Notes under the pieces: model-generated
The model's database searches: none
What the model was told of the DNA's origin: nothing
The model's input: only the letters and a program-made list of their open reading frames with translations
NCBI RefSeq assembly: GCF_005696695.1
Contig: NZ_CP040006.1
Span: 630,001-662,000, forward strand
Direction of reading: 5' to 3'
DNA length: 32,000 bases
Source: Schaalia odontolytica
Lineage (GTDB): Bacteria; Actinomycetota; Actinomycetes; Actinomycetales; Actinomycetaceae
Program-made: the position numbers and the translations under genes
In this document: one piece after another, positions 13,736 to 20,278 of the stretch
Numbering within the stretch: the first letter of the stretch is position 1
How the letters are laid out: each line of letters starts with the position of its first letter

Positions 13736-14098
13736 ATGCGCATCGATGACACCCGCCCCATCTGGATCCAGCTGGCCGACAGCTTCCGCGCCCGTATCAC
13801 CGACGGCACGTGGAAGCCCGGCCAGAAGATCCCCTCCGTCCGCGACCTCGCCATCGAGGCCGGCACCAACCCCAACACCGTCCAGCGAGCCCTCGCCGCC
13901 CTCGACGACGAAGGACTGACCGTCCCCAAGCGGACAGCCGGACGGTATGTCGCCACCGACGACTCTGCGCTGCATGCCCTCCGCCAGGAGGACGCGCGCG
14001 CTGCGGCCGACGCCTTCATCCGCGCCTGCCGAGCCCTCGGCGTCGATGTTGAAGGTGCCCACGGCCTCGTCGATGAACGCTGGAACGCGGACCTGTAA
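13736..14098 (+). CDS. GntR-family transcriptional regulator, short YtrA subfamily
   Basis: 120 aa with the winged-HTH region KIPSVRDLAIEAGTNPNTVQRALAALDDEGL. Its short length and the downstream ABC genes are typical of YtrA-type modules. Confidence 0.85.
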   Translation: MRIDDTRPIWIQLADSFRARITDGTWKPGQKIPSVRDLAIEAGTNPNTVQRALAALDDEGLTVPKRTAGRYVATDDSALHALRQEDARAAADAFIRACRALGVDVEGAHGLVDERWNADL

Positions 14099-14116
14099 AC
14101 CAGGAGGACAACTCTC

Positions 14117-14845
14117 ATGACCACCCAACCCACAGGCGCTGCCGCGGCCGGCCCCGGCCTCGTCGAGGTCACCGGCCTGACGAAGAGCTACCGCTCGACC
14201 CCCGCCCTGCGCGACTACAACCTGAGCCTCGAGTCTGGCCACATCGTCGGCCTCATGGGCCCCAACGGCTGCGGCAAGACCACGCTGCTCAAGATCCTCG
14301 CCGGAGTCCTCTCCGACTATCAGGGCACCGTCACCATCGACGGGCACGCGCCCGGCGTTGCCACTAAGGCGATCGTCTCCTATCTGCCCGACGCCGACTT
14401 CCTGAACACCGACTGGACCGCTGCGGACGCCATCCGCGTCTACTCCACGTTCTTTGCTGACTTCGACGCCGACAAGGCCGCCTCGATGATCAACTTCTTC
14501 GGACTGCCCACCGACCGCCGCCTCGGCGAGATGAGCAAGGGCATGGGGGAGAAGCTCCAGATCAGCCTCATCATGTCCCGGCGCGCCCGCGTGTACCTGC
14601 TCGACGAGCCCATCAGCGGCGTCGATCCGGCGACTCGTGACGTCATCCTCGACGGCATCCTGCGCGAGTTCGACCCGGCCTCGCTGCTCATCATGTCCAC
14701 CCACCTCATTTCCGACATCGAGCATTTCGTCGACTACGCGCTCTTCATGAAGGACGGACAGGTCTTCCTGCAGGGCGACGCCGACGACCTGCGGGCCACC
14801 CACGGCGATTCCCTCGACGCCATCTTCCGGAAGGAGTACCGCTGA
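14117..14845 (+). CDS. ABC transporter ATP-binding protein
   Basis: Walker A GLMGPNGCGKTT, signature-like MSKGMGEKLQ, Walker B VYLLDEP. AGGAGG RBS. Confidence 0.9.
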   Translation: MTTQPTGAAAAGPGLVEVTGLTKSYRSTPALRDYNLSLESGHIVGLMGPNGCGKTTLLKILAGVLSDYQGTVTIDGHAPGVATKAIVSYLPDADFLNTDWTAADAIRVYSTFFADFDADKAASMINFFGLPTDRRLGEMSKGMGEKLQISLIMSRRARVYLLDEPISGVDPATRDVILDGILREFDPASLLIMSTHLISDIEHFVDYALFMKDGQVFLQGDADDLRATHGDSLDAIFRKEYR

Positions 14846-15657
14846 TGTACGCCAAACTGCTTGCCTACGAAATCCGGTCGCGCGCCGTGGCGGACGCGCG
14901 CTCCTTCGGGGCGTTCATCGTCACTATTGCCGTCGCGTCGGGAATCGTTGCCGCGGGGCTGCCGGGGATCAGCGGCTCCACCGCTGTCCTCGCCTACGCC
15001 CTCTGTTCTCTCACGCCGGTCGCCTGCGCGATCGCAGCGATGGCCGACTACTGGAAGACCCTGTATGGGCAGCGCGGCTACTTCACGATGAGCCTGCCGA
15101 TCTCCGGAAAGGTCATCTTCTGGGCAAAGAACACCCGCATCATGATTGAGTGCCTCCTGGCCCTCGTCCTGGCCGTCGGCGGAATCCTCGCCGTCGCTTC
15201 AGCCGCCGCGTGGAGCGACGGTATCAGCCTCGCCGAGTACACGGCCGGACCGCGTTCGCTCGTGGCCGGAGTTCCCACCTCCACCGTGGCCCTCATGATC
15301 GCCGTTCAGGTCATCCTGTCGATGTCCTGGGTCGTACAGGCCTGCGCCGCCATGACGATCGGCGCTGAAGGACGCTTCAACCACCTCGGCTTCGGCGCGC
15401 CCATCATCGGTTTCGTCCTGCTGTACATCGTGAACCAGGTGCTTTCCACGGTTGGCACGTTCTTCCTTCCGCTGTCCGTCACGACTGATGGCCACTTCTC
15501 CACAGAGATCATGTGGACCTCGTACCGCGCGACGATGGGAACCGACGGTCACCCGAACGTCATCGGCATCGGCTCCTATGTCCTCGTGCCCCTGTTCGCC
15601 CTGATCCTGGGCGTGTGGGCCTCCCGCTCGATTGAGAAGCACACGTCCTTGCGCTGA
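14845..15657 (+). CDS. ABC exporter membrane component (ABC-2-like, no recognisable family motif)
   Basis: 270 aa with about 6 hydrophobic segments. Its ATG overlaps the ATPase stop by 1 nt (TGATG). The function is inferred from operon position. Confidence 0.65.
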   Translation: MYAKLLAYEIRSRAVADARSFGAFIVTIAVASGIVAAGLPGISGSTAVLAYALCSLTPVACAIAAMADYWKTLYGQRGYFTMSLPISGKVIFWAKNTRIMIECLLALVLAVGGILAVASAAAWSDGISLAEYTAGPRSLVAGVPTSTVALMIAVQVILSMSWVVQACAAMTIGAEGRFNHLGFGAPIIGFVLLYIVNQVLSTVGTFFLPLSVTTDGHFSTEIMWTSYRATMGTDGHPNVIGIGSYVLVPLFALILGVWASRSIEKHTSLR

Positions 15658-15742: not shown

Positions 15743-16732
15743 ATGACCGCTGGAGGACCGCAGTTTAGCGCCACACCCCAGAATCCCGACCTGCTGCGGT
15801 GGGTCGGCATTCAGGTCCTGCTGCTCGTGATCGCATGGATGATCGGCGTGGTCGTGCGCCGCCTCCTGGCTTCGCGCATGACGATGTCCACGGCCTCGGC
15901 GACCCTCACCGGCCTCGGGGGCCTGTGGGGCGGCCTGCTGGTCGCAGGCTGGATCTTCTCGTCCTCCGACACGTGGCGTCCCGCGATGATCGGCGTGGCC
16001 GCCCTGGTGGCCGCCATCGTGGTCGTTATTGTCTCCCTGATCGTCGCCTACCTGCATCCGCGCCCCGGCCTTGAGCCCATCGCCGAGGTCGCCAAGCGCG
16101 GCGAATCCGACTCCCTCGAATTCAAGTCCAGCGCCCGCTGGAACATGCGCGCCGGCAAGCGCGACGACGCCATGGAAACCGTCATCGCGAAGACGGTCGC
16201 CGCGTTCATGAACTCCGGCGGCGGCACCCTCCTCATCGGCGTCGACGACGACGGGCGCCTCATTGGTCTGGGCCCCGACTACGCGACCCTCAAGACCCCG
16301 GACGCCGACCGCTTCGAGCTGTGGATCCGCGACCTGTGGGGCCAGCGCCTGGGCACCAACGCGGCCGCGCTGCCCCTCCTCGACTTCGCCGAGGCCTCGG
16401 ACCCCCAGGAGGGCTACGAGCGTCAGGAGGTGTGTCGGGTGACGATCCCGCCGTCCACGCGCCCCGTGTATCTCAAGGGCCCCAAGGGTAAGGGCGAGGC
16501 CGAGCTGTGGGTGCGCGTCGGCAACTCGACGCGGCGCCTCGAGGTCGCCGACGCCGTGCAGTACGTGGCCACGCGCTGGCCCGAATCTGTGCGCGTTTCG
16601 CCGCTGACTCGCATCCGCCTGTTCCTCACCATGACCCGCCACCGCGACACCCCCACCCGCCTGCCGCGCGTCGTCGAGCGCGTCCTCACGGAGCGCGCGA
16701 AGCACGGTGTCGGGGTGTCTGAGGGGGAGTGA
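15743..16732 (+). CDS. Membrane-anchored AlbA_2 (Schlafen-like / divergent AAA_4) domain protein
   Basis: 329 aa with GAGGAG RBS. Three N-terminal hydrophobic helices (LLRWVGIQVLLLVIAWMIGVVV, GLGGLWGGLLVAGWIF, AMIGVAALVAAIVVVIVSLIVAYL). These are followed by motifs I recognise from AlbA_2 domains: ESDSLEFKSS, AFMNSGGGTLLIGVDDDGRLIGL, LWVRVGNSTRRL. It lacks the C-terminal HATPase/HTH region usual in bacterial AlbA_2 proteins. Confidence 0.75.
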   Translation: MTAGGPQFSATPQNPDLLRWVGIQVLLLVIAWMIGVVVRRLLASRMTMSTASATLTGLGGLWGGLLVAGWIFSSSDTWRPAMIGVAALVAAIVVVIVSLIVAYLHPRPGLEPIAEVAKRGESDSLEFKSSARWNMRAGKRDDAMETVIAKTVAAFMNSGGGTLLIGVDDDGRLIGLGPDYATLKTPDADRFELWIRDLWGQRLGTNAAALPLLDFAEASDPQEGYERQEVCRVTIPPSTRPVYLKGPKGKGEAELWVRVGNSTRRLEVADAVQYVATRWPESVRVSPLTRIRLFLTMTRHRDTPTRLPRVVERVLTERAKHGVGVSEGE

Positions 16733-16864
16733 GCCGGGCTGTTCTGCGAAGCGGAGCTGGCGGTGGCGTGGGTGCGTTTGAACCCTGTTCTTGTCGAGAC
16801 GGATTTGCCCGACGTGGGGCGGTGAGTGGGCTAGGTGTAAAGCTCGCGGCGGTACACTGTGAGC

Positions 16865-17779
16865 ATGGGTAAACGAATTCTTGGGTGGCTGCGGCAAAGG
16901 CGAGTTGCAGTGATGTATGGAGTGTTATGGTGTTTCTCGTTCTTCGTTATCGCAGTGTTTTTTCATAAAACTCTCACTGATATCGCGCATCGTGCTGATG
17001 GGGAGATTGCTGAAGCCTGCGTGGTGATGTATGTGATTTCTGTTGTTCTCAGTGTGGCTTACGTTTTCTTCGGATTGTCGATTCGCCAGGGGAAACGACG
17101 TCTTTGTGTGACTATGCAATTGCTGGCATTTGCCATACTTGTGACAATATTTCGCTCTGTGTTTGATGTGCTTGGTGGTGAGGGGCTTGCGTTTTCCATT
17201 GGAACACCTACTTCTGGAGTAGTATCGGTCTATGAAGTGTTCTTTATGTGGGCGCTTTTTCTTGTGGGGGTAGGAATTCAAATTACTTTGATCTCCAATG
17301 AAGCTCGACGTGCTGAAATGAATATGCTTCATGGTGGAGTTCTTGTTATCGTAGGTATTCTGCTGCCTAAAATGCTCGATTCCTATTCACTGCTTCGTGC
17401 TCACTGCTACGAGGTGCAATGTGGTAATGGTGAGCTCGGTAGTATCGTGCTATTTGAAATGGCTGTCTCCTACGCTGCTGCTCTAGCTGTAATGTTCGTG
17501 TTTGGGATCGTCTCTCCTTCTATTCGTACTTCTATACGCAGAATTACTGGAGAAAATGAATTTGAATGCGTAATGCATTCTGATGATGTTCCACATCATT
17601 GTGATCATCCCGCCGCTTTTTGCGTAGAAAAGGAATCGTTTGACAAGAGTGCATTGGCAGGCTCTTCCACCGGCTTAAGTGGTGTTGCTCTATCCAAGCA
17701 GCTGATGAGTGCTGTTGTTGGTGGTCTCGTCGCCGGCGCGTGTTTCTCGGTTGTGAACCGTCTCTTCAGTCGCCGCTGA
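16865..17779 (+). CDS. Orphan polytopic membrane protein encoded in low-GC DNA (no family recognised)
   Basis: An uninterrupted reading frame of over 900 nt, unlikely by chance in DNA where my 60-nt hand counts gave 50%, 40% and 33% G+C. The neighbouring gene gave 75%. At least 6 hydrophobic segments, a Cys/His-rich tail (HCYEVQCGNGE, FECVMHSDDVPHHCDHPAAFC) and a C-terminal hydrophobic helix. There is no SD sequence. TACACT (16853-16858) lies 6 nt before the ATG at 16865, consistent with a leaderless mRNA. Alternative starts are GTG 16859 and ATG 16910. Confidence 0.6.
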   Translation: MGKRILGWLRQRRVAVMYGVLWCFSFFVIAVFFHKTLTDIAHRADGEIAEACVVMYVISVVLSVAYVFFGLSIRQGKRRLCVTMQLLAFAILVTIFRSVFDVLGGEGLAFSIGTPTSGVVSVYEVFFMWALFLVGVGIQITLISNEARRAEMNMLHGGVLVIVGILLPKMLDSYSLLRAHCYEVQCGNGELGSIVLFEMAVSYAAALAVMFVFGIVSPSIRTSIRRITGENEFECVMHSDDVPHHCDHPAAFCVEKESFDKSALAGSSTGLSGVALSKQLMSAVVGGLVAGACFSVVNRLFSRR

Positions 17780-17832
17780 ACTGCGTTGCCTTGCACTTTG
17801 ACTGGTGAATCGAGGAGTGTTCCCACATTGTG

Positions 17833-18000
17833 GCTTGTTACTAAGTGGTGTTACACCACTTAGCGGGGTATTACACCAGCTCGGAGGTGGTGTAATGCTC
17901 CCTAACTGGTGTAATGCTCCCTAACTGGTGCAGGGCTGTCTGCTGCGGCTCGGTTGGACGCTAGTTGGAGCTACTACGGAGTAGCTCTTACCGCGACGGA
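17833..18000 (+). repeat. Macro-unit A (168 bp)
   Basis: Perfect hairpin CTAAGTGGTG-TTA-CACCACTTAG (17841-17863). Hairpin GGGGTATTACACCAGC / GGTGGTGTAATGCTCC (17865-17901). Perfect 19-bp tandem duplication TGGTGTAATGCTCCCTAAC (17888-17906 and 17907-17925). Closing word TGGTGCAGGGCTG. Tetraloop hairpin at 17967-17988. Confidence 0.8.
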
Positions 18001-18168
18001 GCTTGTTGGACAGTGGCATTGCACTAGTTAGCGCAGCGTTGCACTGGATAGTAGGCAGTGTAATGCCCTCCTATCTAGTGCATTGCTGTCGTATCTAGTG
18101 CAGTGCTGCGCGGCCCGGGCCTGTTAGTTGTTTGCGGAGGACGTTGCGACGTCCGGTTCCATAACGAT
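18001..18168 (+). repeat. Macro-unit B (168 bp)
   Basis: Forward words TTGCACTAG (18019) and TTGCACTGG (18039). Reverse words AGTGTAATGCC (18057), CTAGTGCAT (18075) and CTAGTGCAG (18095). A 20-bp direct repeat TATCTAGTGCAnTGCTG occurs twice. Tetraloop hairpin GGACGT-TGCG-ACGTCC at 18139-18154. Confidence 0.8.
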
Positions 18169-18316
18169 GCTTGTTACCGATGAGGCGGTGCACCCGATCC
18201 GTAGGCATTACACCCCTTCTGATCGGGTGTATCGCGACGGATCGGGTGCAGCGCTGCCTGGCCAGGACCTGTCGTACGCCGGCATGTGCAGTGTCAGCGA
18301 GGATACCCACGTCCAA
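18169..18316 (+). repeat. Macro-unit C (148 bp, one micro-unit shorter than A and B)
   Basis: GCGGTGCACCCGATCC (18185-18200) pairs at 15 of 16 positions with GGATCGGGTGCAGCGC (18239-18254). There is an inner arm pair TACACCC / GGGTGTA. The closing word GGTGCAGCGCTG is shared with A and B. Confidence 0.75.
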
Positions 18317-18430
18317 GCTTGTTACTGATGAGGTGTTGCACCCGATCGGGAAGATTCAACCCGATCAGAAAGGGTTGAACCTTCCCCAACGGGTTGAATG
18401 TTCCCGATCAGGTTGAATCTTGTCGCGCCC
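18317..18430 (+). repeat. Macro-unit D (terminal and more diverged)
   Basis: The first 31 nt are nearly identical to unit C (GCTTGTTACyGATGAGG..TGCACCCGATC). They are followed by ATTCAACCCGATC (18354-18366) and three reverse copies: GGGTTGAAC, CGGGTTGAATG and GATCAGGTTGAAT (18406-18418). Confidence 0.7.
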
Positions 18431-18444
18431 TGAGGTCCCAAACA

Positions 18445-18482
18445 GGGGAGGGGCCCAAGCCTCTCGGCTCGGACCCCTCCTC
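18445..18482 (-). terminator. Terminator of the DEAD-box helicase gene
   Basis: GGGGAGGGGCC (18445-18455) pairs with GGACCCCTCC (18471-18480). On the minus strand the hairpin is followed by TGTTTGGG. It lies 30 nt after the minus-strand stop. Confidence 0.55.
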
Positions 18483-18511: not shown

Positions 18512-20278
18512 TCACTCGCCGCCCTTGCGGCGGCGGATGCGCTTGCGGGCGCGGGGCGCGCCCTCAGGTGCCTCACCCGAACGCTGCGAGTGCTCGCCGC
18601 GGCCACGGCCACGCGTGCCGCGGTCAGAGCGGCCGCCCTTGCCGGCGTTCAGCGTGCGATCGCCGTCTTGGGAGCCTCGACGCGACCCGCGCGAACGCGA
18701 CGCGTCGGAGGAAGCAGCCGAACCACCACGCGACGAACGACCGCGGCCGCCACGCGAGCCACCACGCGAGCCACCGGAACCCGAACGCGAGCCGCCACGG
18801 CCTCGTCCCTCGGAACGGGGAGCGGAGCCGCCCAGGTCCTCGAGGACCTCGGCGTCCAGGCCTGCGCGCGTGCGCTTGGCGCGCGGCAGACGACCGGTCG
18901 TGCCCTCCGGGATATCCAGGTCGGTGAACAGGTGGGGGGAGGTGTGGTAGGTCTCGAGCGGATCCGGCACGCCCAGGCCCAGTGCCTTGGAGATGAGCGA
19001 CCAGCGCGGCGTGTCGTCCCAGTCGACGAAGGTGACGGCCGTGCCCGAGTTGCCCGCGCGGCCCGTGCGGCCGATGCGGTGGATGTAGATCTTCTCGTCT
19101 TCGGGGCACTGGTAGTTGATGACGTGCGTGACGTCGTCGACGTCGATGCCTCGCGCGGCGACGTCGGTGGCGACCAGGACGTCGACCTTGCCGTTACGGA
19201 AGGCACGCAGAGCCTGCTCGCGGGCGCCCTGGCCCAGATCGCCGTGCAGTGAGCCGACCGCGAAGCCGCGGGCGGTCAGGTCCTCGCCCAGGCGGGCGGC
19301 GGTGCGCTTGGTGCGGCAGAAGATGACGGTGCGTCCGCGCCCCTCGGCCTGGAGGATGCGGGAGACGACCTCCACCTTGTTCATGGCGTGAACACGGTAG
19401 ATGACCTGCTTGACCGTGTTGACGGTCTGGTTCTGGTCGTCGGGATCCTGCGCGCGGATGTGGGTCGGCTGGACCATGAAGCGGCGGGCGAGGGCCACGA
19501 CGGGGCCGGGCATGGTCGCGGAGAACAGCATGGTGTGGCGGTTCTCGGGGACACGGCTGAGCAGCGTCTCGACGTCGGGCAGGAAGCCCAGGTCGAGCAT
19601 CTCGTCGGCCTCGTCGAGGACGACGGTCTCCACGCCGGACAGGTGCAGGTGGCCCTTGCGCAGCAGGTCGATGAGGCGGCCGGGCGTGCCCACGACGATG
19701 TCTGCGCCACGCTGGAGGGCCTCGATCTGGGGCTCGAAGGCGACGCCGCCGTAGATTTCGACGATGCGGGTCGACAGGTACTTGGCGGCCTCGCGCAGGT
19801 CCTGGGCGACCTGCTTGGTGAGCTCGCGGGTCGGCAGGATGATGAGCGCCTGCGGCTTGTTCGGGTTGAGGAGGTCCTCGTAGCCCTCTTCGTCGGGCGC
19901 GATGACGTCCTCGAGGACGGGGATGCCGAAGCCGAGGGTCTTGCCGGTGCCGGTCTTGGCCTGGCCGATGATGTCGTGGCGGTCCAGCGCGGGGCCGAGG
20001 GTGAGGGCCTGGATCGGGAAGGGGTGCGTGATGCCCTTGTCTTCGAGGGCGTCGACGATCGGGTCGGTGACGCCGAAGTCCGCGAAAGACTTCTTGTCGA
20101 GGTCCTCGCCCTTGCCGGTGATGTCCGGGGTGGCATCTTCGACCTCGGGGGCTGCGGGCTTGATGTTGCCGAGGCGGACGACGCCTGCGGAGTATTCGAC
20201 GGACGAGGCCGGGGTGGCCTTCTCGGTGGCGTCAACGTCGGTGGTGGGCACAGTTGCCTCAGTGCTCGTGTTGGTCAC
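18512..20278 (-). CDS. rhlE: DEAD-box ATP-dependent RNA helicase with an Arg/Gly/Ser-rich C-terminal tail
   Basis: 588 aa with a GTG start. Q motif ..HPFPIQ, motif I AKTGTGKT, Ia PTRELT, II VLDEADEM, III SAT, VI HRIGRTGRAG. The tail reads RGRGGSRSGSGGSRGGSRGGRGRSSRGG. The symbol is assigned by analogy to mycobacterial Rv3211. Confidence 0.92.
   Translation of the reverse strand: MTNTSTEATVPTTDVDATEKATPASSVEYSAGVVRLGNIKPAAPEVEDATPDITGKGEDLDKKSFADFGVTDPIVDALEDKGITHPFPIQALTLGPALDRHDIIGQAKTGTGKTLGFGIPVLEDVIAPDEEGYEDLLNPNKPQALIILPTRELTKQVAQDLREAAKYLSTRIVEIYGGVAFEPQIEALQRGADIVVGTPGRLIDLLRKGHLHLSGVETVVLDEADEMLDLGFLPDVETLLSRVPENRHTMLFSATMPGPVVALARRFMVQPTHIRAQDPDDQNQTVNTVKQVIYRVHAMNKVEVVSRILQAEGRGRTVIFCRTKRTAARLGEDLTARGFAVGSLHGDLGQGAREQALRAFRNGKVDVLVATDVAARGIDVDDVTHVINYQCPEDEKIYIHRIGRTGRAGNSGTAVTFVDWDDTPRWSLISKALGLGVPDPLETYHTSPHLFTDLDIPEGTTGRLPRAKRTRAGLDAEVLEDLGGSAPRSEGRGRGGSRSGSGGSRGGSRGGRGRSSRGGSAASSDASRSRGSRRGSQDGDRTLNAGKGGRSDRGTRGRGRGEHSQRSGEAPEGAPRARKRIRRRKGGE

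Follow-up and report, generated by a model that had tools for sequence, protein, structure and literature searches.

The replacement islands of Pseudomonas aeruginosa (the O-antigen wzy/wzx, type IV pilin and pyoverdine-receptor regions) hold alleles too divergent to be aligned, at a fixed position and with sharp edges between conserved flanks; these alleles have a low G+C content and atypical codon usage, are uncoupled from the strain phylogeny, and encode envelope products. All these features have their like at the locus described here, a membrane protein gene of Schaalia odontolytica located, together with a downstream array of long hairpins, in a stretch of 32 kb (contig NZ_CP040006.1, positions 630,001 to 662,000 of the forward strand; “the window” in what follows). 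In our view, it is probably a resident replacement locus. Positions are those of the whole window, L-numbers designate loci in relatives, and P-numbers homologous proteins. Unlike in P. aeruginosa, the product is a single small protein with six transmembrane (TM) helices and tiny external loops, it is not accompanied by a biosynthetic cluster, the variation lies in TM1-3, and no link to a glycan, a pilus or a siderophore was found.

The pherotype loci (staphylococcal agrBDC, Bacillus comQXP) are also comparable, with a hypervariable block within conserved bounds, a variable polytopic membrane domain and specificity groups found across lineages; here, in contrast, there was no peptide-precursor gene, histidine kinase or response regulator in or beside the divergent segment (the divergence bubble, see below), and no co-varying partner was identified. 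Membrane immunity proteins (against pore-forming or membrane-acting bacteriocins and polymorphic toxins, and the CPBP/Abi-associated ones) are likewise small and polytopic with highly variable TM regions, and a further likeness is the make-up of the cluster, which encodes an ABC transporter, a GntR regulator of the YtrA type and, in several relatives, a CPBP/Rce1-like protease; the differences were the lack of a toxin or bacteriocin gene nearby, the lack of sequence or fold similarity to known immunity proteins, and a single copy instead of an immunity-gene array. The kind of locus is already known; the protein family, the cluster and the repeat family are new.

Sharply bounded divergence in a fixed slot

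In the relatives examined, the membrane gene was located after the genes for a GntR regulator, an ABC ATPase, a permease and an AlbA_2 protein, and before a convergent DEAD-box helicase gene, and this position in the cluster was the same across Schaalia, Pauljensenia, Actinomyces and Trueperella. The gene, its divergent part and its two flanks were (GC3, G+C content at third codon positions; TM topology is treated in the next section):

16865-17779, + strand: hypervariable membrane protein gene, 304 aa from the ATG, alternative GTG start at 16859 (homologs, alignment, AF2 model, topology)
16900-17700, + strand: divergence bubble, where nucleotide identity to relatives is about 50%, vs. more than 90% in the flanks (sliding identity)
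15743-16732, + strand: left flank, membrane-anchored AlbA_2/Schlafen-domain protein of 329 aa (PF04326, E=2e-16), GC3 0.91, 93-97% identical in most relatives
18512-20278, - strand: right flank, convergent DEAD-box RNA helicase (Pfam), 91-97% identical in relatives

Sliding nucleotide identity was higher than 90% up to about 16850, fell to about 50% over 16900-17700 and rose again to 86-99% from about 17750, and the C-terminal helix of the protein and the whole array were conserved beyond the 3′ edge of the bubble. Amino acid identity of the membrane protein ranged from 24 to 100% between strains, beside flanks at 93-98%; with respect to L001, L004 and L007 it was 84, 43 and 43%, respectively, vs. 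93-99% for most of the flanking proteins. Close alleles were mosaics, with blocks at 98% and at 78% identity. Synonymous divergence (dS) was about 6-fold above that of the neighboring gene: the membrane gene had a nonsynonymous divergence (dN) of 0.52 and a dS of 1.41, near saturation, vs. 0.035 and 0.22 for the AlbA_2 gene in the same genome pairs. The dN/dS ratio (omega) was 0.27-0.43, with a median of 0.45 over 161 less-saturated pairs (0.09-0.27 in the neighbor). Loop 1, TM2 and loop 2 were the most variable segments (22-29% identity; local dN/dS 0.65-1.6 on saturated dS), and the N-terminus, TM5 and the C-terminus were 71-74% identical with lower dS.

The alleles did not follow their genomic backgrounds. 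L010 and L095 had an AlbA_2 protein only 79-80% identical to that of the window but a membrane-protein core 91% identical, and the opposite was seen for L011 and L015, whose core was 40-46% identical beside an AlbA_2 and a helicase at 95-97%. Overall, flank and allele identities were correlated with a coefficient of 0.17. The slot of L047 contained a P0165-type allele, about 24-26% identical to that of the window, in which the core motifs were kept. In L074, L078, L058 and L099 the slot was empty, the upstream gene being followed directly by the array, and in L097 the upstream gene was followed by a malic-enzyme gene. The reading frame was intact in all 38 full-length alleles recovered from the loci. 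A fixed position with a sharply bounded divergent block, a dS above that of the flanks, and an allele genealogy uncoupled from the genome genealogy, the features expected from a replacement locus, were thus found together.

As a side observation, the AlbA_2 value of L010 and L095 (79-80% vs. 93-97% elsewhere) was accompanied by a helicase still at 95%, and this AlbA_2 gene may be a second recombinant block beside the slot.

The original prediction had described an abrupt compositional break on the basis of five hand-counted 60-nt samples, all of which were reproduced exactly (75.0, 50.0, 40.0, 33.3 and 55.0% G+C). The G+C content fell from about 66-70% and was 46.4% in the open reading frame (ORF; 16865-17779) and 55.8% in the array (17780-18430), vs. 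66.3% and 66.8% in the remaining window; every other 500-nt block reached at least 58%, leaving a single dip across 32 kb. The membrane ORF was the only one with low G+C and low GC3 among the window genes, which are otherwise ordinary housekeeping genes: its GC3 was 0.41, vs. 0.91 for the AlbA_2 gene, 0.89 for the helicase gene, 0.86 for the adjacent membrane permease and at least 0.81 for each remaining coding-looking ORF. Because the GC3 of the ORF was low while that of the neighboring permease was 0.86, the drop is a property of synonymous sites and not an effect of hydrophobic residues. The membrane gene was the low-GC spot in every relative examined, with a mean GC3 of 0.47 over the 38 full-length alleles, all of them low (0.85-0.91 in the flanks). 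A native gene with a GC3 of 0.4-0.5 in a genome at about 0.9 is a caution against reading “low GC” as “foreign DNA”. The frame extends from the GTG at 16859 or the ATG at 16865 to the stop codon at 17777-17779 (304-306 open codons); its staying open for more than 900 nt despite its AT-richness, already pointed out from the letters alone, was not reproduced in any of 2000 composition-matched shuffles, whose longest open stretches had a mean length of 86 codons and stayed within 237 (vs. 304 observed).

The membrane protein, its putative promoter and the replacement reading

The product of the ORF is identical to QCT35040.1 / WP_131726634.1 of S. odontolytica (FBF35_02810, “hypothetical protein”), whose annotated length of 304 aa corresponds to the ATG at 16865. 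It had been taken for an orphan, which it is not: at least 179 homologs with 30-100% identity were found, none of them with a Pfam domain. The family is narrow, since it accounts for 61 representatives among 1.84 billion clusters at 50% identity, and all genome matches belonged to the Actinomycetaceae (Schaalia, Pauljensenia, oral “Actinomyces sp.” strains and Trueperella pyogenes). The earlier statement that it could not be placed in any family was confirmed by the profile, structure, PADLOC and PHROGs comparisons, all of which were empty: a profile search of a 5.8-billion-protein set gave no link to a known family or fold, Pfam at E up to 1 returned scattered noise alone for the 38 alignment members, and tblastn against phage and plasmid records gave no relatives (the other searches are given below).

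The AlphaFold (AF2) model (mean pLDDT 75.8, about 90 in the core) consisted of six long helices, a disordered stretch (residues 233-286) and a C-terminal helix. This agrees with the polytopic protein of at least six helices plus a C-terminal hydrophobic anchor deduced originally: an N-terminus inside, six TM helices, a disordered acidic linker (residues 233-276) and a conserved C-terminal hydrophobic helix ending in RR (KQLMSAAVSGLVAGACFSVVNRLFSRR), which was conserved across alleles. Lysine and arginine counts per loop (K+R, 32 alleles) followed a clean positive-inside pattern, predicting the N-terminus (MGKRILGWLRQRRV, 4.6 K+R), loops 2 and 4 and the segment after TM6 to be inside and loops 1, 3 and 5 outside. 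The invariant or near-invariant residues formed a cluster on the outer side, made up of G113, S121, Y123 and E124 (loop 3 and the start of TM4), the TM5 motif GGVLxIxGILxPKxLES, and the invariant C181 and C186, a CxxxxC pair in loop 5, between TM5 and TM6; P168 was invariant as well. A Cys/His-rich segment with a cytoplasmic appearance had been proposed; its HCYEVQCGNGE patch is real, but the cytoplasmic side was not upheld, the TM5-TM6 loop being predicted as extracytoplasmic by the positive-inside rule, and a second Cys/His patch (FECVMHSDDVPHHCDHPAAFC) falls in the non-conserved, disordered linker, where it is allele-specific and not part of the conserved core.

Upstream of the gene, the following region was conserved:

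16826-16864, + strand: conserved promoter region with TACACT (16853-16858) and the R-arm-like GGTGTAAAGCTC (16834-16845) (relatives compared)

TACACT is a -10-like TANNNT hexamer located 6 nt before the ATG at 16865. The hexamer and its distance to the ATG were constant in 10 of 12 relatives, very different alleles included, and the 40 nt upstream were conserved, while the 6-nt spacer itself varied (GTGAGC, GGGCGA, GTAAAT, GTGAAG, GTAGAG); no Shine-Dalgarno sequence was seen in the spacers of the compared alleles. The conserved TACACT-6 nt-ATG arrangement supports, at the level of sequence comparison, the leaderless promoter suggested by the original prediction, from which the membrane gene would be transcribed on its own. 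A scan for consensus sigma-70 promoters gave no promoter, a miss that is expected for actinobacterial promoters. The motif GGTGTAAAGCTC resembles the R arm of unit A of the array (GGTGTAATGCTC) and makes, with GTACACT, an imperfect inverted repeat around the -10 hexamer; GTAAAGC was conserved in nearly all alleles. This motif could be an operator common to the array arms, or a coincidence.

Taken together, the locus was probably best described as a resident replacement locus, that is, a fixed slot with deeply diverged alleles of one membrane protein, kept as a balanced polymorphism and acting as a specificity determinant. This reading is preferred because of the roughly 6-fold dS, the sharp edges, the alleles shared across backgrounds, the purifying selection on the core and the presence/absence pattern; a recent transfer, a decaying gene or mere rapid evolution would look different. 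Alleles would be exchanged by homologous recombination through conserved edges, the promoter and the first 14 codons at the 5′ side and the C-terminal helix and hairpin array at the 3′ side, and would be maintained by balancing (negative frequency-dependent) selection. The protein would be a membrane-embedded specificity determinant, either the target of, or an immunity factor against, an antagonist with its site of action on or within the membrane (bacteriocins, phages and Saccharibacteria epibionts being the candidates), and its conserved outward-facing core (loop 3, TM5, the CxxxxC loop and TM6) may carry the basic function. Variation in TM1-TM3 and the adjoining loops 1 and 2 suggests recognition within or at the membrane. 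The cluster, with its ABC transporter, its CPBP protease and its GntR regulator of the YtrA type, is a weak hint at a theme of envelope or antimicrobial peptides. The low GC3, common to all alleles, would most simply be a by-product: if divergent alleles cannot recombine in the bubble, GC-biased gene conversion and codon selection would lapse and AT-biased mutation would prevail, and in this respect a native gene with low GC3 bears on the debate over biased gene conversion in bacteria.

Several observations weigh against this reading. Overall omega was lower than 1, positive selection was not demonstrated, and just short segments (loop 2) exceeded 1, on saturated dS. In the sample examined, different alleles were not seen in any pair whose flanks were at least 97% identical, so polymorphism within the species is inferred only; the closest informative pair had a flank dS of 0.16 with fully diverged alleles. 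The conserved, recombining C-terminal part also had just about 53% G+C, which counts against the gene-conversion account of the low GC3. With a cytoplasmic linker, the RR end of the C-terminal helix would violate the positive-inside rule, and a simple 7-TM topology does not fit. Finally, no partner toxin, phage or ligand was identified for the membrane protein, and nothing was retrieved for it from Pfam, NCBIfam, PADLOC and PHROGs, from a PDB sequence profile, or by Foldseek searches of its model against PDB and viral structures (best TM-score lower than 0.35).

Schaalia odontolytica is abundant as a commensal of the mouth and serves as the model host for the Saccharibacteria epibiont TM7x; to our knowledge, the determinants of the compatibility of strains as TM7x-type hosts are poorly understood, and the papers found on TM7x and phage and on Esx and the epibiont concern other loci. 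The membrane gene bears the signature of a long-running recognition conflict, and is a candidate determinant of host range, or of immunity against antagonists that act on the membrane. A far-reaching version, in which the protein would be the hypervariable sensor or recognition surface of an undescribed envelope defense or compatibility module of oral Actinomycetaceae (with AlbA_2, CPBP and the ABC transporter) setting susceptibility to phage, Saccharibacteria or toxins, units A-D would be a new class of regulatory RNA, and GC3 would be at mutational equilibrium where recombination is blocked, is speculative and we give it little credence as a whole.

The hairpin array

Modular extragenic repeats composed of a leader, variable internal repeats and a tail, with stable hairpins, are known from BOX elements of Streptococcus pneumoniae and REP/BIME of enterobacteria, which are dispersed elements located 3′ of genes, with copy numbers that differ from strain to strain. 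The array resembles them in all these points; unlike them, it was present at only about 5 loci among the matches listed, has four collinear unit types and old, stable copies, and lacks any sequence similarity or Rfam match. Tandem small RNA families (Listeria LhrC1-5, Vibrio Qrr) also have similar structured units in tandem, copies elsewhere, and sequences conserved across species, but the hairpins here are far longer (about 25-40 bp) and no promoter-like element was found before individual units. The array and the hairpin that follows it comprise:

17780-17832, + strand: spacer following the stop codon, conserved and containing a small hairpin (relatives compared)
17833-18000, + strand: repeat unit type A; leader GCTTGTT, then a long hairpin of about 106 nt (arms R0-F1-F2-R1-R2-R3), then a tail of about 60 nt
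18001-18168, + strand: repeat unit type B, collinear with A, with all stem differences compensated
18169-18316, + strand: repeat unit type C, whose 3′ arm (GACGGATCGGGTGYAKCGC) has 2 copies here and 2-5 in relatives
18317-18430, + strand: repeat unit type D, usually the last before the terminator
18447-18480, no strand assigned: G+C-rich hairpin (GGAGGGGCCCAAGCC...GGCTCGGACCCCTCC) between the array and the stop codon of the convergent helicase gene, probably a terminator (inverted repeat, conserved in relatives)

The first unit began 55-58 nt past the stop codon in nearly all Schaalia relatives. Each unit consists of the GCTTGTT leader, a short reverse arm R0, the forward arms F1 and F2, 2-5 tandem reverse arms of 19-20 nt and a tail of about 60 nt (about 110 nt for the hairpin part and about 168 nt in all), and contains 5-6 copies of one half-site in both orientations. 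Unit order varied between relatives (ABCD, AC, CD, ABCC, ACDB, ACC, BCCD, ABD, AAD, BCAC). The original prediction of a structured repeat array was substantiated by folding and covariation of these four long-hairpin units. Unit hairpins had folding energies of -50 to -62 kcal/mol (z -5 to -8). In the A/B consensus hairpin, 98.3% of the cells paired and five pairs switched between GC and AU or between UA and CG, a covariation reached in 0 of 500 shuffles; pairing fell to 19-57% in slid registers. Most of the compensations separate type A from type B, and they represent few independent events. Plus-strand folds contained 237 G.U pairs, vs. 85 in the minus strand, and were about 8 kcal/mol more stable for types A-C; this bias in G.U pairs and stability favors a molecule (RNA or single-stranded DNA) that has the same reading direction as the membrane gene.

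Rfam gave no match at gathering thresholds, and generic miRNA-hairpin matches alone at E up to 10; a terminator scan performed no better than chance, no conserved -10-like element was found by eye before individual units, and no paper on small RNAs or repeats of Schaalia was found. The presence of CRISPR, integron attC, retron, diversity-generating retroelement (DGR), iteron origin or IS110 bridge RNA was rejected, there being no cas, integrase, reverse transcriptase, rep or recombinase gene. A type III toxin-antitoxin system (ToxIN-like), with identical short RNA repeats in tandem upstream of an endoribonuclease toxin gene, does not match either: the array lies downstream, its units are of about 168 nt and four types, and the six-TM protein has no nuclease domain.

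Metagenome contigs were scanned with one A/B-type pattern, and at least 120 loci carried it among the matches listed, about 70 of them corresponding to this locus and about 50 to at least four other loci, with three long contigs having two such loci each. Most arrays at other loci were between convergent housekeeping genes. Unit A copies clustered by locus (97-99% identity between orthologs, 85-93% between paralogs within a genome); the copies are old and stable rather than recently spreading, because the clustering follows the locus, and homogenization of copies within a genome was rejected for the same reason. Two unit patterns scanned in viral contigs found nothing. These hairpin repeats make up a conserved, as yet undescribed non-coding element of the Schaalia clade.

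Judged by its sequence, the array is most likely a structured 3′ region (a stabilizer, a terminator or an insulator between convergent genes) which incidentally serves as a recombination anchor. Units A-D would be a dispersed, old and conserved family of long hairpins, read on the plus strand as a 3′ region probably stabilizing or terminating the transcript. Independent small RNAs, or selfish repeats of the REP or BOX kind, are possible. The second of these options, selfish DNA of the REP/BIME, BOX or MITE (miniature inverted-repeat transposable element) type lodged here with no function for the cell, is the alternative that survives best, although we consider it unlikely. The array consists of modular imperfect palindromes, dispersed, of variable copy number and in extragenic 3′ positions between convergent genes, as such elements do, and the malic-enzyme gene inside it in some strains suggests a recombination-prone site; but about 5 loci among the matches listed are not hundreds, the clustering by locus speaks against a recent spread, no RAYT/IS200-like or other transposase was found among the window genes, and the stems are maintained through compensatory changes, the strand bias being typical of RNA.

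A dedicated unit of gene and array, in which the hairpin RNAs would regulate or neutralize the protein (like a type III antitoxin or as a cis-regulatory 3′ untranslated region) or the repeats would be binding sites of a protein controlling the gene, appears rather improbable. The constant 55-58 nt distance to the stop codon in nearly every Schaalia relative, the R-arm-like GGTGTAAAGCTC with its imperfect inverted repeat at the -10 region, and the 5-6 half-site copies per unit in both orientations are in its favor. However, the same unit types were present at the four or more other loci beside unrelated genes, Trueperella and other distant homologs had the membrane gene without an array, some Schaalia strains kept the array without the gene, array composition did not track the type of allele, and the G.U strand bias speaks against purely double-stranded protein sites. 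The functional pairing of gene and array implied by the earlier note was therefore not sustained: the adjacency is conserved in the Schaalia group, but it is not a dedicated pairing, because gene and units occur apart.

Three further observations concern the array. In several strains a malic-enzyme gene was found inside it (L004 9680-11329), with unit-C matches on either side (L004 9235-9301 and 11422-11657), which suggests that the array is a site of gene insertion or loss. The 9-nt loop of the inner hairpin of unit D (18362-18370) was GATCAGAAA here and in L001, and CTTCTGATC, its near reverse complement, in L007, L011, L015, L017, L020 and L021; the hairpin loop has been inverted, as is typical when the template is switched at a palindrome. 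The array next to the malate dehydrogenase gene was again located downstream of a low-GC ORF of about 560 aa without family (L040 reverse-complemented 41-1726; L031 reverse-complemented 421-2091), present in some strains, with a G+C content of 0.47 and a GC3 of 0.50, N-terminal TM helices, a Cys/Asn/Thr-rich domain and no Pfam match; in L122 a sugar-transferase-like gene occupied that place. The malate dehydrogenase locus may be a second replacement locus.

The conserved cluster and the origin of the divergence

The replacement reading places the membrane gene as a resident of its cluster, the remaining parts of which are:

13736-15657, + strand: conserved upstream part of the cluster (GntR, ABC ATPase, permease), ahead of the membrane gene in all relatives, distant ones included
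13736-14098, + strand: YtrA-like GntR regulator, 120 aa (Pfam; same length in relatives)
14117-14845, + strand: ABC ATPase, 242 aa (Pfam; same length in relatives)
14845-15657, + strand: permease, 270 aa, without Pfam match (same length in relatives)
16754-16825, + strand: 3′ remnant of an ankyrin-repeat gene, 23 codons plus stop, translating to ELAVAWVRLNPVLVETDLPDVGR*

The order GntR, ABC ATPase, permease, (CPBP protease), AlbA_2, a further gene, membrane gene was syntenic as far as Trueperella, the CPBP gene being present in some genomes. The cluster was kept around distant homologs (about 25-35% identity) and frequently included a small DUF2249 gene and one for a CPBP/Rce1-like protease; in Trueperella pyogenes the order was ABC ATPase, permease, CPBP, DUF2249, homolog, further genes, DEAD helicase, and the distant homolog P0161, on a short contig, had a different right-hand context. 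Most Schaalia, Pauljensenia and Actinomyces genomes, as well as Trueperella, carried the gene at this site, and a minority lacked it; this occasional absence stands, but the distribution as a whole does not support an island. The cluster is shared across genera, all alleles are low-GC and there are no mobile-element relatives, so the description of the gene as cargo on an island acquired by transfer did not hold. A search for tRNA genes in the window and domain scans for integrase, transposase and phage domains among its genes were negative, as the first inspection of the sequence had indicated, and no direct repeats flanked the locus.

Three explanations other than replacement address the divergence itself. 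The first, neutral decay, in which a dispensable, weakly constrained or dying ORF would drift to AT and its diversity would be unselected, is improbable. It fits the dispensability of the gene in some strains, the omega of 0.3-0.45 (above the 0.09-0.27 of the neighbor) and a GC3 near the expectation of AT-biased mutation, but not the intact frame of the 38 full-length alleles and at least 179 database proteins, the omega well below 1 with invariant residues and a TM5 and C-terminus conserved at 71-74%, or the occurrence of the same allele on divergent backgrounds; moreover, relaxed constraint on the protein cannot yield a 6-fold excess in dS.

The second, a local hypermutation hot spot (an AT-rich segment flanked by hairpins that would be subject to targeted mutagenesis or to error-prone repair, with no ancient alleles or recombination), seems more improbable still: dN and dS were both raised within sharp limits in a segment which adjoins long palindromes, and the inverted hairpin loop is a sign of template switching, but the window contained no DGR-type reverse transcriptase or template repeat, the alleles form discrete classes with the same class on divergent backgrounds, close alleles are mosaics of blocks at 98% and 78%, and the low-GC homolog of Trueperella has no array.

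The third and weakest, a recently acquired low-GC island with a toxin, abortive-infection or exclusion membrane protein from a mobile element as cargo, accounts for the compositional break (46 vs. 66% G+C; GC3 0.41 vs. at least 0.81), the strains without the gene and a protein without known family, but is very unlikely and largely refuted by synteny across genera, with alleles low-GC in all relatives, no integrase, transposase, tRNA or direct-repeat boundaries at the locus, no relatives of the cargo in other taxa or in phage, plasmid and viral collections, and nothing in PADLOC and PHROGs. Taken apart from the question of origin, a toxin, abortive-infection or exclusion role of the protein is neither favored nor disfavored by these results.

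Beside the replacement locus, the neighboring genes presented some differences between strains. A gene encoding a 363-aa ankyrin-like protein was intact directly upstream of the membrane gene in most Schaalia genomes, and was deleted in the window strain and in L001; the C-terminus of the L004 protein (...ELAVEWVRLNPVLVEADLPDVGR) is the counterpart of the remnant in the window, and the ankyrin matches of the intact protein in Pfam were sub-threshold (best Ank_5, E=1e-4, 22.8 bits vs. a curated cut-off of 27). At its N-terminus (residues about 20-115), the AlbA_2/Schlafen protein carries a membrane anchor of several helices, an architecture unusual for this domain and kept across the cluster. 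One metagenome-assembled genome labelled “uncultured Xylanimonas sp.” (L020, CAKMQM010000052.1) had flanks 92-97% identical to those of the window (86-97% for flanks and array), and this contig is probably mis-binned or mislabelled. The permease (14845-15657) was more variable between strains (76-97%) than its neighbors (93-99%), with a normal GC3 of 0.86.

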